Shown piece after piece: positions 3,643 to 37,456 of a stretch of DNA of 40,035 nucleotides; the first letter of the stretch is position 1, and each line of letters starts with the position of its first letter. The notes below the pieces were generated by a model. It was not told the origin of the DNA and made no database searches. It saw only the letters and a list, made by a program, of their open reading frames with translations. The stretch is from the UHGV virus genome UHGV-0090445; one strand, given 5' to 3'. The DNA is from a virus. The position numbers were made by a program, and so were the translations under genes.

Positions 3643-3864
3643 TTAGTTATCAAAAAGTCCGTACGTTTCTTCTTCTTTAGGTGTAAGGGGAAGAATCTCT
3701 ACTCTATCTATAGATACCTTTTCAATGTACCCATGAGGTCTACTTAAAATTAAAGCTCTCTCATGCCACAGAACTCCAAGAATGTGATACCTTCCAGCAT
3801 CGCCTTTTACCCTGGCTCTTCCTTTGATTCTTGGCGGCATAATGCCATATTTTTTCTTTGCCAT
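3643..3864 (-). CDS. Hypothetical protein (73 aa), translationally coupled to upstream antirepressor gene
   Basis: ORF from track; its start overlaps the stop of the 3864..4643 ORF (ATGA); basic N-terminus MAKKKYG; no family recognised. Confidence 0.4.
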   Translation of the reverse strand: MAKKKYGIMPPRIKGRARVKGDAGRYHILGVLWHERALILSRPHGYIEKVSIDRVEILPLTPKEEETYGLFDN

Positions 3865-4592
3865 TATGCAACATTACTCCCATGAATCAGGTGTTGTAGT
3901 GCTTTAACACCCTCCGCATTGTAGCGGAATGCTTCCACCTGTTTGCTTGAATGCGCAGATTTATCCAAGAAGAACTTCCCGTACTGCTCAGTTTTGAGGT
4001 TGTTTGCGTTAGCAATGCGACCAATCTTGTTGGCCGTTACTCCAAGCTGCTCTGCAACCTCCCCTGCTGAGTAGTAATGCTCTTCTATTGCCGGAAGAGG
4101 TATTGCATTAAAACCAACGAGCGGGTTGATTATACTTGCTGCCGCTGTCTGCTTTGCCTCCGGCGCAAGATTTGGCATCAGATCGAACAGATTGGTAACA
4201 GCTTCAACCGTCATTTTCAATGTTCGCGCTTGACGATACTCAACAAGTCCACTCGCTGATTTACCGCTTTTAATGTGCGCTTCTTGCATACTTTCAAGTT
4301 GGTCTACCAGTGAGCGGCGAACGGCTTTTGACTCGCGAGCGGCAACTCGCAATGCTTGCTTGATTGACATCTCAATGATAACCATCGAAGTTTTGTTCGC
4401 TTTTTGCACTACACTTTTTGTGTAGTGCTCTCCATCCAATTCATCTTCAATTTTCTCGATGAATTTGTTATTACGAACCTCCGGCTCACCGCACTGTCTA
4501 CGAGCCTGATTTACCATCTCAAGCAGGCGCTGGCTGTCAATGGTTTTATCCGTGACAACGGATCCGATGTTTGCTACATTCTTAAAAGTCAT
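3864..4592 (-). CDS. Antirepressor-like protein (KilAC/ANT-like C-terminal region)
   Basis: Track ORF 3864..4643; likely start is ATG at 4592 (MTFKNVANIG...) with SD AAGGAA 6 nt upstream; C-terminal motif EVAEQLGVTANKIGRIANANNL resembles the KilAC/ANT region of the nin-region Rha protein in this window. Confidence 0.6.
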   Translation of the reverse strand: MTFKNVANIGSVVTDKTIDSQRLLEMVNQARRQCGEPEVRNNKFIEKIEDELDGEHYTKSVVQKANKTSMVIIEMSIKQALRVAARESKAVRRSLVDQLESMQEAHIKSGKSASGLVEYRQARTLKMTVEAVTNLFDLMPNLAPEAKQTAAASIINPLVGFNAIPLPAIEEHYYSAGEVAEQLGVTANKIGRIANANNLKTEQYGKFFLDKSAHSSKQVEAFRYNAEGVKALQHLIHGSNVA

Positions 4593-24561: not shown

Positions 24562-24746
24562 CGTCTTCCCCTCTTGCCCTGTTTGACCATCAGGACGCCG
24601 TTAACTATTACTTGACGCTCGCCTTTGCTGTCTCGGTTGTACTTGAGCACTGTTCCTCTTGCGCAGGAAAGCATCCTCGCCACTTCGGTCTGATTGCCTC
24701 GTGTCTGGATAAGAAGCTCTGGTATCGTTTGAATTGTGGCGTTCAT
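24558..24746 (-). CDS. ninH: NinH-like protein
   Basis: TIPELLIQTRGNQTEVARMLSCARGTVLKYNRD resembles lambda NinH (GNQTEVARRLKCSRGTVRKY). Confidence 0.8.
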   Translation of the reverse strand: MNATIQTIPELLIQTRGNQTEVARMLSCARGTVLKYNRDSKGERQVIVNGVLMVKQGKRGRR

Positions 24747-25105
24747 GCGTTCTCCAGTTCGGTGATTTTTATTCCAAGCCGTCCGCCTGGTACTTTCACG
24801 CCACGAATTACGCGAATGTCATCGAATTGCTCGTCATCTTCCGCAAATCCGGCGTGGATAAGGGAGTCGAGTAAACCTTTCAGGATGTTATCGAGGTCGC
24901 GGCGGCGGGAGTCTGGAACGTCTGCGATGACTTTGATGCGGAGTCGTGATTTGGTGAAAATGTCTAACTTAAGTTGGCGGATGATTTGCTGAACGTCTTT
25001 TCGGCATTTCTGGCCTTTATCGCTTATGTAATATTGGCTTCCCCGTCTTCGCCAGTAGGTATTCAGCGACGGTGGGTACGGAAGTGTGAATCTGTATTCT
25101 GCCAT
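24743..25105 (-). CDS. rusA: RusA-type Holliday junction resolvase
   Basis: 120 aa; FTLPYPPSLNTYWRR...DSRRRDLDNILKGLLDSLIHAGF...GGRLGIKITELE matches the RusA pattern. Confidence 0.85.
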   Translation of the reverse strand: MAEYRFTLPYPPSLNTYWRRRGSQYYISDKGQKCRKDVQQIIRQLKLDIFTKSRLRIKVIADVPDSRRRDLDNILKGLLDSLIHAGFAEDDEQFDDIRVIRGVKVPGGRLGIKITELENA

Positions 25106-25630
25106 TTATCCTCTCCCATGATTATGGTGATAGCCCAATCGTGATTCCGCCAATTTTCTGGCATTAACGGCTAGAGATATGTCATCGTATAATCCAAGAA
25201 ATATCTTTTTATTATCACTGTTTATATATGCACCCCACTTTTTATTCTTCTTATAGTAGGCAACACCAATTACTCCAGAGCGATTATTAATAGGCTTTTT
25301 TCTGTTCCTTGAGTTCTGTTTATCATCTACAACGCGCAAATTGCATATTCTGTTATCGCTTTTAATTCCATTTATGTGGTCAATTTCCCCATCAGGTTCA
25401 CTTCCATAAAAGGATATCCATGCGATTCTATGAGCTCGACAAACTTTTTTATTTACAGATATACGAACGTATCCTTTTTCATCTATAGAACCAGCAATCT
25501 TACCGGCATATGTTGAATTCCAGCACTCTCTTACACTTTCTCTTCTCTTGTATATAAACAAACCTGTTTCGCTATTATATTCATACAATTCATTGATTTC
25601 TTTTTGTGTTGGATATCTTTTACCGTTCAT
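25106..25630 (-). CDS. HNH homing endonuclease (HNH plus AP2-like region), AT-rich insertion
   Basis: 174 aa; HRIAWISFYGSEPDGEIDHINGIKSDNRICNLRVV (HNH motif), followed by GVIGVAYYKKNKKWGAYI (AP2-like); AT-rich by eye; wedged between ybcO-like and rusA. Confidence 0.8.
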   Translation of the reverse strand: MNGKRYPTQKEINELYEYNSETGLFIYKRRESVRECWNSTYAGKIAGSIDEKGYVRISVNKKVCRAHRIAWISFYGSEPDGEIDHINGIKSDNRICNLRVVDDKQNSRNRKKPINNRSGVIGVAYYKKNKKWGAYINSDNKKIFLGLYDDISLAVNARKLAESRLGYHHNHGRG

Positions 25631-25917
25631 GGCTTAATCTTCCCCTCCTTCAGCAGTATCGCCTGCGTCCTGATCACGCCTTCGAGGTGGTAAAGTCTGG
25701 CGTCTTTGTTGTCGAGAATCATTGTGCGTCGGTCGATTTCATCGTGACACGCGCTACAAGCCCATGCGCCGATCAGGTCGTCAGGCTTCATTCCAGTTCC
25801 GCAAATTCCAGCCATCCGGTAATGTGCCAGAACTGTGGTTTCAGGATTACCATTGCATACTCCGTAAATACGTACCTGGCATTCTCTGCCGCGCGCTTCT
25901 TTGCGTAGGTTAGCCAT
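25627..25917 (-). CDS. YbcO-like (DUF1364) nin-region protein
   Basis: 96 aa with Cys/His cluster (CQVRIYGVC...AHYR...WACSACHDEID); resembles remembered DLP12 YbcO family; neighbours RusA. Confidence 0.65.
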   Translation of the reverse strand: MANLRKEARGRECQVRIYGVCNGNPETTVLAHYRMAGICGTGMKPDDLIGAWACSACHDEIDRRTMILDNKDARLYHLEGVIRTQAILLKEGKIKP

Positions 25918-35467: not shown

Positions 35468-36175
35468 ATGGATTTGAATAAATTCGATGAGCCATTCAGC
35501 CACGAAGATATCGAATGGCGAATACAGCAAAGCGGTAAAACACGCGATGGCAAGGTGTGGGCTATGGTGCTGGCTTATGTCACGAACCGGGCAATCATGA
35601 AACGCCTGGACGATGTTTGCGGCAAAGCAGGATGGCGCAATGAATACCGCGATATTCCCAACAACGGCGGAGTTGAATGCGGCATATCAATCAAGATTGA
35701 TTCCGAATGGGTAACCAAATGGGATGCTGCTGAAAACACGCAGGTAGAAGCCGTCAAAGGTGGTCGTTCCGGTGCAATGAAGCGCGCTGCCGTTCAGTGG
35801 GGAATCGGTCGGTATCTGTATAACCTTGAGGAAGGTTTCGCACAAACATCTCTCGATAAAAAGCATGGGTGGCACAGGGCAAAACTGAAGGATGGAACAG
35901 GATTTTACTGGCTCCCTCCATCGCTTCCGGGATGGGCAATCCCAGCATCAGATAACAAACCATCACCAGAAAATATCAACCAGAAATCTCCATCGGTTGA
36001 CTGCGAACAAATCCTGAAAGACTTCAGCGATTATGCGTCAACAGAAACTGACAAGAAAAAACTCATCGAGCGTTATCAGCATGACTGGCAATTAATGGCT
36101 GGCAATGAGGATGCGCAGGCTAAATGCGTTCAGGTAATGAACATCAGAGTTAACGAACTAAAACAGGCGGCATAA
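35468..36175 (+). CDS. Single-strand annealing protein: Rad52/Sak-like N-terminal domain fused to P22 Erf-like C-terminal tail
   Basis: 235 aa; N-terminal region (GKVWAMVLAYVTNRAIMKRLDDVCG...AMKRAAVQWGIGRYLYNL) Rad52/Sak-like; C-terminal ...QILKDFSDYASTETDKKKLIERYQHDWQLMAGNEDAQAKCVQVMNIRVNELKQAA matches remembered P22 Erf C-terminus. Confidence 0.8.
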   Translation: MDLNKFDEPFSHEDIEWRIQQSGKTRDGKVWAMVLAYVTNRAIMKRLDDVCGKAGWRNEYRDIPNNGGVECGISIKIDSEWVTKWDAAENTQVEAVKGGRSGAMKRAAVQWGIGRYLYNLEEGFAQTSLDKKHGWHRAKLKDGTGFYWLPPSLPGWAIPASDNKPSPENINQKSPSVDCEQILKDFSDYASTETDKKKLIERYQHDWQLMAGNEDAQAKCVQVMNIRVNELKQAA

Positions 36176-36643
36176 ATGTCTCACTTGGACGGAATTATTA
36201 AAAGATTCGAGTCCAGCTACAAAGTTAATGAAACAACAGGTTGCTGGGAGTCTACCTATTCAAAAAACAAAGGAGGATACACAAAATTTGTAGCCTTTGG
36301 CGTAACAATGCTTTCTCATCGGGTTGCTTTTGAGCTTTATCACTCCCCCATTCCATCTGGGAAGATGGTTTGCCACAAATGCGATAACCCATGCTGCGTT
36401 AATCCTGAACATCTCTTTTTAGGTAGCGCGCAAGAAAACATGGACGACAAGATAGCAAAAGGAAGGCATCGTGGAGCCAAGAAAGGTCATGCTCATCATG
36501 GTGCAAAATTAACAGAGTGGCAGGTTATAGAAATTAGGAAAAGACTCTCTGAAAAAGAGAGTCAGTACAAGATAGCAAAAGACATGGGTGTATCTCAATC
36601 AATTATAAGCAACATAAAAACTGGCAAGAGGTGGAGAAAATGA
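36176..36643 (+). CDS. HNH homing endonuclease with C-terminal HTH-like region, insertion between annealing protein and SSB
   Basis: 155 aa; Cys/His-rich HNH-like core ([26 protein letters not shown]); C-terminal [22 protein letters not shown]; stop overlaps ssb start (ATGA). Confidence 0.8.
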
Positions 36644-37146
36644 GTTCTCGCGGGATAAATAAGGTGATTATCCTTGGTCGGGTAGGACAAGACCCGGAAG
36701 TTCGATACTCACCATCAGGAACAGCGTTCGCTAACCTGACAATAGCCACGTCAGAACAATGGCGAGATAAAAATACTGGCGAGCAAAAGGAATTGACTGA
36801 ATGGCATCGTGTTGCTGTATCCGGGAAACTGGCTGAGGTCGTGGGGCAGTATGTGAAAAAAGGTGATCAGATTTATTTCGAGGGAATGCTGAGAACCAGA
36901 AAGTGGAAAGACCAGTCAGGGCAAGACCGTTACACAACCGAGGTTCATGTCGGAATTAATGGCGTGATGCAAATGCTTGGCAGCATTGGCGACAGCAAAC
37001 AACAAGCAGCCAGCAGGCAATCACAGAAGCCACAGCAGCAATCATCACCAGCACAACACAACGAACCTCCGATGGATTTTGACGACGATATACCCTTTGC
37101 ACCAGTAACTCTCCCCTTCCCTCGTCACGCTATTCACGCAATTTAA
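36640..37146 (+). CDS. ssb: Single-stranded DNA-binding protein with C-terminal extension past the DDDIPF tip
   Basis: [23 protein letters not shown]...[15 protein letters not shown]...[18 protein letters not shown] close to E. coli-type SSB; ends ...MDFDDDIPF then 15 further residues ([15 protein letters not shown]). Confidence 0.85.
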
Positions 37147-37159
37147 TCAGGAGAAAATC

Positions 37160-37456
37160 ATGCCAGCGCCTCAGTATGGTGCGGATGACCCGCGCCGCTG
37201 TTCCGGCAATTCCGTATCGGAGGTGCTGGATAAATTCAGGAAAAACTACGACCGGATAATGTCGCTACCGCAGGAAACGAAAGAGGAAAAGGAATTTCGC
37301 CATTGTATATGGCTTGCAGAGAAAGAAGAACGCGAGCGAATTTACCAGACATCAATCCGACCATTCCGCAAAGCCACATATACCAACTTCCCTGAATATA
37401 TCGACCCGCGCCTGCGTAATTACCGCTCACGATATGGCGCTATCAGTAATGACTGA
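37160..37456 (+). CDS. Hypothetical protein (98 aa)
   Basis: ORF from track, co-directional early-left gene; no family recognised. Confidence 0.5.

Follow-up and report, generated by a model that had tools for sequence, protein, structure and literature searches.

The 40,035-nucleotide window analysed here, UHGV virus genome UHGV-0090445, is a P22-like (Lederbergvirus-type) mosaic prophage of Escherichia coli, with structural genes ~95% identical to those of phiv205-1, CUS-3 and their relatives. Its recombination module contains an open reading frame (ORF) of 155 codons for an HNH_3 endonuclease (36176..36643, + strand), located between the gene for an Erf-like (Rad52/22-family) single-strand annealing protein (erf; 35468..36175, +; Pfam Rad52_Rad22, E=2e-25; PHROG 1097, E=4e-129) and the phage ssb gene, an HK75-like allele designated allele A (36640..37146, +; Pfam SSB, E=1.7e-36; true ATG at 36640). 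The reading that we favour, with a probability of roughly 0.7, is a free-standing cassette for an HNH homing endonuclease: this 464-nt insertion would have as its target either the erf|ssb junction or the ssb 5' end, and would bring a resistant site of its own; ssb is probably the target gene. The ORF shows two traits of a homing gene, being polymorphic for presence and absence at one precise site and having spread independently of its flanks, and carriers differ from the putative targets near the insertion site by ten linked substitutions in ssb nt 4-16, which are never seen without the HNH gene.

Insertion boundaries and the recoded ssb start

The TAA of erf directly abuts the ATG of the HNH gene, with zero gap, and the HNH stop codon TGA (36641-36643) overlaps the start of ssb as ATGA (36640-36643). 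The initial annotation had placed an HNH gene between an annealing-protein gene and ssb with its stop overlapping the ssb start, and the ORF, both flanking genes and the overlap are confirmed. Phages HK75, mEp235 and mEpX2 have an erf-ssb region ~98.5% identical to that of the window but without exactly the HNH segment. The TAA of erf in HK75 is followed directly by the ATG of ssb (...AAACAGGCGGCATAAATGGCAAGCAGAGGCGTAAATAAGGTGAT...), and the net gain from the insertion is 464 nt (36176 to about 36655). Between the window and HK75, 14 of the 708 erf positions differ, as do 12 of the 507 ssb positions, ten of which fall in ssb nt 4-16; the rest of ssb differs at 2 of 494 nt. The empty junction reads TAA ATG GCA AGC AGA GGC GTA AAT and the filled one TAA ATG TCT ... 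AAA ATG AGT TCT CGC GGG ATA AAT.

The recoded stretch (36643..36655, +), in which AGTTCTCGCGGGA replaces GCAAGCAGAGGCG, forms the right end of the cassette and a putative immunity segment. Against a background of 0.4-2%, the binomial probability of ten mismatches within 13 nt is <=3e-15. The encoded residues change from A-S-R-G-V to S-S-R-G-I, leaving Ser-Arg-Gly untouched, and the Ser (AGC to TCT) and Arg (AGA to CGC) codons move to another codon family, which gives the maximal nucleotide change with zero amino-acid change. The N-terminal codons of ssb (M-A-S-R-G-V-N-K-V) are very conserved, and such codons are the type of sequence that homing endonucleases typically exploit.

The left flank, a candidate left half of the target, is formed by the last 21 nt of erf (GAACTAAAACAGGCGGCATAA; 36155..36175, +). 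These are invariant at 20 of 21 positions between loci whose erf 3' regions otherwise differ by ~30% (an HNH lineage of 74% identity and the HNH-less HK75), and they provide a Shine-Dalgarno-like context that serves ssb in HNH-less phages and the HNH gene in the window. P22-type ERF (PF04404) and Rad52-like proteins have a common homologous C-terminal domain of ~60 residues (window 35996-36175; 3821-4000 in loci L127, L128 and L130), in whose coding sequence the final 21 nt are almost invariant and the remainder is ~30% different; the Erf C-terminal domain is swapped between annealing-protein types (PMC2629481). The final HNH codons contain a second Shine-Dalgarno-like stretch, AGAGGTGGAG (36627..36636, +; read from the sequence), with AAAGGTGG as its equivalent in homologous cassettes, which may stand in for the ribosome-binding site lost to ssb by the insertion. 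A single base separates the HNH gene of the window from the most frequent allele (21 of 33 loci): A for C at 36637 (gene nt 462), so that the window protein ends ...KRWRK and not ...KRWSK; this variant falls inside the Shine-Dalgarno-like stretch for ssb.

The gene had been annotated as an insertion, and comparison of the site among relatives agrees with this, since it is optional rather than universal: besides the empty sites of HK75, mEp235 and mEpX2, only 8 of 80 loci (~10%) selected from IMG/VR for a >=97% identical Erf are occupied. The IMG/VR sample also included 42 loci encoding relatives of the HNH protein. Among 5,426 complete E. coli genomes, the gene occurs at >=99% identity in 41, always adjoining ssb, and the empty junction in 318. 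A megablast search of 50,697 phage records with the HNH gene found no match and a sensitive blastn search of phage records one, in a Vibrio phage (69%); most known copies of the gene are in prophages.

Linkage of the recoded start to the cassette is strict. Counting loci as fetched, before de-duplication, the ssb start is ATGAGTTCTCGCGGGATA in all 33 loci with the HNH gene and ATGGCAAGCAGAGGCGTA in the 75 without it, the latter including six with one- or two-nucleotide variants (GGAAGT, GCAATC, TCAAGC). These six starts (L054, L109 and L112, ATGGGAAGT...; L086 and L100, ATGGCAATC...; L115, ATGTCAAGC...), some of which change an amino acid, might be partially resistant variants of the target. 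The ten recoded positions are the sole fixed differences between the two sets of loci in erf or ssb; no linked single-nucleotide polymorphisms and no co-conversion gradient were found in either gene beyond ssb nt 4-16. Across all of IMG/VR, the pattern ATGAGTTCTCGCGGNNTAAA occurs in 29 contigs, and 29 of 29 bear the HNH gene.

The cassette is much more uniform than its surroundings. Nucleotide diversity (pi) over 24 de-duplicated loci with the gene is 0.0034 for the HNH gene, against 0.021 for erf and about 0.04 for ssb, a roughly six-fold trough confined to the cassette. The ORF is intact in 33 of 33 loci, with 10 haplotypes that are 0-5 nt apart, and its guanine-plus-cytosine (GC) content is 40.6%, compared with 47.7-48.3% in the flanks. 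It occurs on many erf haplotypes and before two different ssb alleles, HK75-like in most carriers and Sf6-like in two, with the switch falling within ssb nt 17-29. Recent horizontal spread would be expected to leave such a pattern, an apparently young and nearly uniform cassette set in backgrounds that are old and diverse.

A mechanism by homing would run as follows. The natural site of the cassette would be the junction between an annealing-protein gene and ssb in lambdoid and P22-like phages. The HNH protein, an I-HmuI-like monomer (β-sheet, His-Me finger, helix-turn-helix) expressed from the early-left (pL) operon in lytic growth, would recognise the junction of HNH-less genomes, ...AAACAGGCGGCATAA|ATGGCAAGCAGAGGCGTAAATAAGG..., whether in a co-infecting phage or in a resident prophage, and would nick or cut it. 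A nick rather than a double-strand cut is possible by analogy with I-HmuI, and a nick in replicating phage DNA could become a break. The break would be repaired by recombination off the HNH-carrying genome, probably through the neighbouring Erf and SSB proteins, and the repair would copy the HNH gene plus 13 nt of recoded ssb; the minimal mobile unit would then include the protective recoding, and transmission would be super-Mendelian. With 10 nucleotides changed and Ser-Arg-Gly kept, the ssb of the carrier is therefore proposed to be no longer a substrate. The cassette takes over the old start context of ssb and brings a new Shine-Dalgarno sequence and the ATGA overlap, and for this reason ssb is proposed to stay expressed.

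The HNH_3 protein and its homologues

The protein of 155 residues matches Pfam HNH_3 (PF13392) at residues 48-89 (E=1.1e-13; 51 bits against a curated cutoff of 24.8) and PHROGs 59, 1872 and 6254, all of them HNH endonucleases (E=2e-33 to 4e-30). A match to zf-His_Me_endon, the I-PpoI zinc-loop family (PF05551), is below threshold (E=1.8e-4), and those to HTH_38, HTH_3 and Sigma70_r4 at residues 111-152 are weak or sub-threshold. NCBIfam gave nothing useful for the protein, and a sequence search of the PDB gave no significant relative, the best match being a designed protein (E=0.037). Among 5.8 billion proteins there are 410 relatives at E<1e-5, nearly all annotated just as HNH_3. An alignment of 63 of these shows C23, R49, H67, C69, D70, C74, N76, P77, H79, L80, G83, N88, D91, K95 and R97 to be invariant and W24, G34, Y35, H48, C66 and N71 to be nearly so.

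The AlphaFold2 model (mean pLDDT 89.7) consists of an N-terminal β-sheet of four strands (residues 15-46), a His-Me finger (48-94) that holds the ββα unit (strands at 64-67 and 80-83 and a helix at 85-94), a linker modelled with less confidence and a C-terminal three-helix helix-turn-helix (114-149; helices 114-125, 130-137 and 141-149). The top Foldseek matches in the PDB are I-HmuI (1u3e; E=8.9e-4, probability 1.0) and then I-PpoI. The catalytic HNH_3 core (residues 48-89; 36317..36442, +) contains H67, N76, H79 and N88 and the Cys cluster C66/C69/C73/C74. From the model, H67 would be the general base, N76 the structural asparagine and N88 with H79 the metal site, and the Cys cluster would bind zinc. 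The C-terminal DNA-binding region (residues 111-152; 36506..36631, +) is assigned from the weak helix-turn-helix hits and the modelled helices. Model, invariant residues and PDB matches thus all agree with the ββα-metal fold of HNH_3 and His-Me finger nucleases, and the ORF is an I-HmuI-like HNH_3 nuclease with a C-terminal helix-turn-helix, for which nuclease activity is predicted. The initial annotation, which had recognised an HNH endonuclease with a Cys/His-rich core and a C-terminal helix-turn-helix-like region and had named the lack of catalytic residues on alignment as a result that would speak against it, stands in all three respects: H67, N76, H79, N88, C69 and C74 are invariant among the 63 homologues, most of the Cys/His-rich core (C23, C66, C69, C73, C74, H48, H67, H79) is invariant or nearly so, and the C-terminal region has sub-threshold Pfam hits and three modelled helices. 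The His-Me finger classification places HNH_3 and zf-His_Me_endon with I-HmuI in group 2, which consists largely of homing endonucleases (Jablonska et al. 2017, PMC5714182). An anti-phage defence nuclease was considered and rejected, since PADLOC gave the generic homing endonuclease model 'HEase' (E=1.9e-7), a weak helix-turn-helix hit and nothing else, and the neighbours are erf, ssb and abc2.

More distant homologues remain loyal to ssb over a wide range of divergence. In seven lineages of 51-74% identity the HNH gene immediately precedes ssb and its stop overlaps the ssb start, the downstream ORF of the 51% lineage being cut by the contig end. The 74% lineage, from prophages of Cronobacter, Citrobacter and other Enterobacteriaceae, shows the same ATGA overlap and follows a P22-type ERF (PF04404) or a Rad52-like gene. 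The order is ERF-HNH-SSB in Vibrio phage 1.079.O (62%), unknown-HNH-SSB in Shewanella algae (60%) and in a homologue of 58% identity, RdgC/FtsK-gamma-HNH-SSB at 59%, and Sipho_Gp157-HNH at 51%, where the cut ORF is not confirmed as SSB. The preceding gene thus varies (ERF, Rad52-like, RdgC/FtsK-gamma, Sipho_Gp157 or unknown). IMG/VR loci of 38-48% identity have no ssb within 3 kb, and homologues of <=46% identity sit at other places, away from an ssb start, three of them (43-46%) beside P22 gp10-like or DUF551 genes.

Between the window and the 74% lineage the DNA is 68% identical, and the proportions of synonymous and non-synonymous differences are 0.79-0.89 (pS) and 0.19 (pN); these are given in place of dN/dS, which is not computable as synonymous sites are saturated (pS above 0.75). 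The junctions of this lineage are identical to those of the window (left ...AAACAGGCGGC(A/G)TAA ATGTCTCAC, right ATGAGTTCTCGCGG), which suggests that they are under nucleotide-level constraint. An empty site of the ERF-HNH-ssb arrangement of this lineage was not obtained from the phage collection, which gave three weak partial hits only.

Alternative explanations

Several observations weigh against homing. An HNH-less recoded ('resistant empty') allele was not found in IMG/VR or in the 5,426 E. coli genomes, and this counts because, in the classical homing cycle, such alleles should arise once the endonuclease gene is lost. When the same E. coli genomes were probed with a synthetic 'empty but recoded' junction, full-length matches at 100% identity came only as two pieces split by the HNH gene, and the best one-piece matches (86.7% identical) were the wild-type empty site. 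A scan of GTDB species representatives for the recoded ssb start gave 10 hits in unrelated phyla (Clostridia, Planctomycetota and others) and is uninformative on Enterobacteriaceae, because ~17 chance matches were expected. The ATGA overlap imposes the leading A of ssb codon 2 and so accounts trivially for one of the ten changes. E. coli E2348/69 carries, in a single chromosome, a prophage with the HNH gene together with an unconverted HNH-less junction (NZ_CP059840.2, 3114908-3114967, locus L180, and 1555158-1555681); the empty junction is one base off, with GGCAGC for the consensus GGCGGC at a position 7 nt upstream of where the cassette inserts. In lysogens, pL repression would account for the lack of conversion. 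The recoded 13 nt could also be the ssb start of the original donor, brought in by ordinary recombination, and the tight coupling to ssb down to 51% identity, with strong purifying selection, also fits a protein that partners SSB.

Such a partner is the main rival: the HNH protein would be a working nuclease of the recombination module that makes nicks or ends for Erf and SSB and is tied to SSB without being selfish. We consider this unlikely, although it would account for the tight packing of the TAAATG and ATGA junctions within the erf-ssb-abc2 operon, for a position directly upstream of ssb that is kept in seven lineages, including a Vibrio phage and Shewanella, and for the strong purifying selection (pN 0.19 against pS about 0.8). 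A 2025 survey of lambdoid recombination modules (PMC12315714) likewise ranks HNH genes as a possible fourth nuclease type of these modules and regards the one of ES18 as 'very likely' legitimate; the same survey, however, cautions that HNH genes are mobile, and the enzymes of ES18 and Sf6 come from other genes, which occupy another junction. A module nuclease should be regularly present, whereas ~90% of otherwise near-identical modules (>=97% identical Erf, same ssb) are without it. Partnership predicts neither ten linked changes within nt 4-16 of ssb, of which eight fall in the Ser, Arg and Gly codons with synonymous recoding, nor a six-fold diversity trough limited to the cassette, and the protein has the fold and architecture of a site-specific homing enzyme.

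It is very unlikely that the cassette is a passive mosaic segment (a 'moron') moved by homologous or illegitimate recombination, with the nuclease uninvolved and the recoded ssb start simply a donor allele. Lambdoid phages are highly mosaic, the short conserved flanks (the 21 nt at the erf end and AAATAAGGTGAT in ssb) are possible crossover points, and the missing resistant empty sites agree with this explanation. It does not account for a right boundary in the same 13-nt interval on two ssb alleles, for a recoded stretch never found apart from the HNH gene in >60 independent genomes, or for the fact that every copy has kept its catalytic residues and a full ORF. Neutral allele history would not be expected to yield maximal synonymous change either, and the clade holds one site across hosts while the upstream gene changes.

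Another very unlikely explanation, that the nuclease is mainly a weapon that cuts the ssb 5' end of rival HNH-less phages or prophages, and perhaps of the host, while the recoded ssb of the carrier is spared, draws on the constancy of ssb rather than the upstream gene as the partner of the clade and on the ssb start of E. coli K-12 (ATGGCCAGCAGAGGCGTAAACAAGGTT; L178, 226-262), which matches the HNH-less phage allele at 24 of 27 nt and differs from the recoded start of the window (36640-36666) at 12 of 27, but what lies upstream of the host ATG bears no relation to the erf end that is conserved at the phage site, and exclusion of competitors is a by-product of homing anyway. I-HmuI-type enzymes were reportedly found by Goodrich-Blair and Shub in 1996 to mediate exclusion of markers of related phages, which we counted in favour of this explanation. 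Host chromosomal ssb could be a secondary target.

Related systems, the ssb 3' end and significance

I-HmuI, encoded in an intron of Bacillus phage SPO1, belongs to the same Pfam family as the window protein, is its best structural match (1u3e) and has the same order of modules: N-terminal β-sheet, ββα-metal core and C-terminal helix-turn-helix. The two are only 16% identical, and the window gene is free-standing between two genes rather than intron-encoded. Unlike I-HmuI, the window protein has an extra Cys cluster (C23/C66/C69/C73/C74) that resembles the zinc loop of I-PpoI. It is small and probably monomeric, and hence possibly a nickase.

The closest parallel in behaviour is with the free-standing homing endonucleases SegF, SegG and MobE of T-even phages, for which 'intronless homing', with spread by break repair, is documented (PMC2988022, PMC2790892). 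Like the cassette described here, these lie between two conserved genes, are present or absent in close relatives and are accompanied by polymorphism at the neighbouring site in the carrier. The window cassette differs in its setting, a temperate lambdoid or P22-like prophage with an erf|ssb target, and in that its spread by break repair is proposed from sequence comparison; its putative protective recoding lies inside a very compact cassette whose end runs into the start codon of the putative target gene. Small phage HNH proteins at a fixed place next to a functional partner also offer a precedent for a 'domesticated' enzyme. According to Kala et al. 2014, as cited in PMC12315714, HK97 gp74-type HNH proteins adjoin the terminase genes. 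They belong to the packaging module; every phage that uses them has them and requires them. The window gene, by contrast, is found in ~10% of relatives. We take the HK97 gp74-type proteins to be members of Pfam family HNH (PF01844) and not of HNH_3.

Optional endonuclease genes are also present elsewhere in the erf-ssb-abc2 module. Sf6 gp26, the Huey 'endonuclease' and ES18 gp47, the last of which is an HNH_3 protein like that of the window and is treated as a probable recombination nuclease in the survey (PMC12315714), lie between ssb and abc2 rather than before ssb and are unrelated or distantly related to the window HNH. The Sf6 and Huey type also has recoded ssb codons beside its own insertion point. 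The SSB of the window and HK75 has 15 extra residues after the canonical DDDIPF tip (window 37068-37146, the ssb 3' end), and the final 45 nt of the window ssb recur without change as the final 45 nt of the ORFs for Sf6 gp26 and the Huey 'endonuclease'. The codons for DDDIPF show ~8 mostly synonymous differences between Huey, which is occupied (L002, 2600-3200), and the window, which is empty; the corresponding Sf6 locus is L003, 2660-3270. By these comparisons, a second and unrelated endonuclease cassette seems to use the ssb 3' end as its site, with the same kind of recoding. Host partner proteins may not be bound by an SSB that continues beyond its C-terminal Phe. It is improbable, though conceivable, that the HNH clade of the ssb start is an ssb-directed weapon rather than a mere parasite, with the ssb of a rival, possibly of the host, destroyed and replaced by the phage copy while the carrier expresses its own recoded, resistant ssb; together with the cassette at the 3' end, this would make ssb a two-ended battleground for phage nucleases.

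The window has another HNH_3 ORF (25106..25630, - strand; 174 residues; Pfam E=1e-16; GC 34.7%) between the YbcO-family nuclease gene ybcO (25627-25917) and rusA (24743-25105). This is an optional 525-nt insertion, absent from 75 of 75 phage records that match its flanks (HK75, mEp235, HK620, CUS-3 and others), in which the ybcO-rusA region is 650 nt long compared with 1175 nt in the window. A recent duplication relating the two HNH genes is rejected, as phmmer found no similarity between them at E<10. The initial annotation had called two different HNH insertions in one phage notable; different and optional they are, but such a pair is not unusual in a lambdoid prophage. Of the other features, the integrase ORF (14-1207) lies at the window's left end, and the next gene of the recombination module after ssb is the anti-RecBCD gene abc2 (37160..37456, +; Pfam Anti-RecBCD_p2, E=4e-61). 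The related prophage of E. coli 90-9280 (L004, 10365-12794) carries the same HNH cassette; it has IS100 (IS21-family) beside an HNH-endonuclease pseudogene fragment and an AP2-domain ORF in the replication/nin region, and a gene for a DnaQ-like 3'-5' exonuclease, absent from the window, between ssb and abc2.

Free-standing HNH homing endonucleases are already well known, and the erf|ssb cassette is a clear but ordinary example of them, although no description of an HNH lineage at the ssb start or of the linked recoding was found in the searchable literature. Where the survey of lambdoid recombination modules (PMC12315714) leaves HNH genes as an uncertain nuclease class owing to their mobility, the comparative data indicate that the erf|ssb type is a selfish homing cassette, which on present evidence should not be counted among the functional module nucleases. 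These data also define a candidate target of ~40 bp and natural pairs of donor and recipient, namely window-type prophages with HK75 or mEp235 and the two prophages of the enteropathogenic E. coli (EPEC) strain E2348/69. Should the enzyme prove to have the predicted specificity, it could be of use as a nicking or cutting reagent. For the biology of these phages, the locus is a compact natural example of how a homing gene may settle on the start codon of an essential-type gene without harm: the cassette reuses the translation start that ssb had, brings in a new ribosome-binding site and has five codons recoded.

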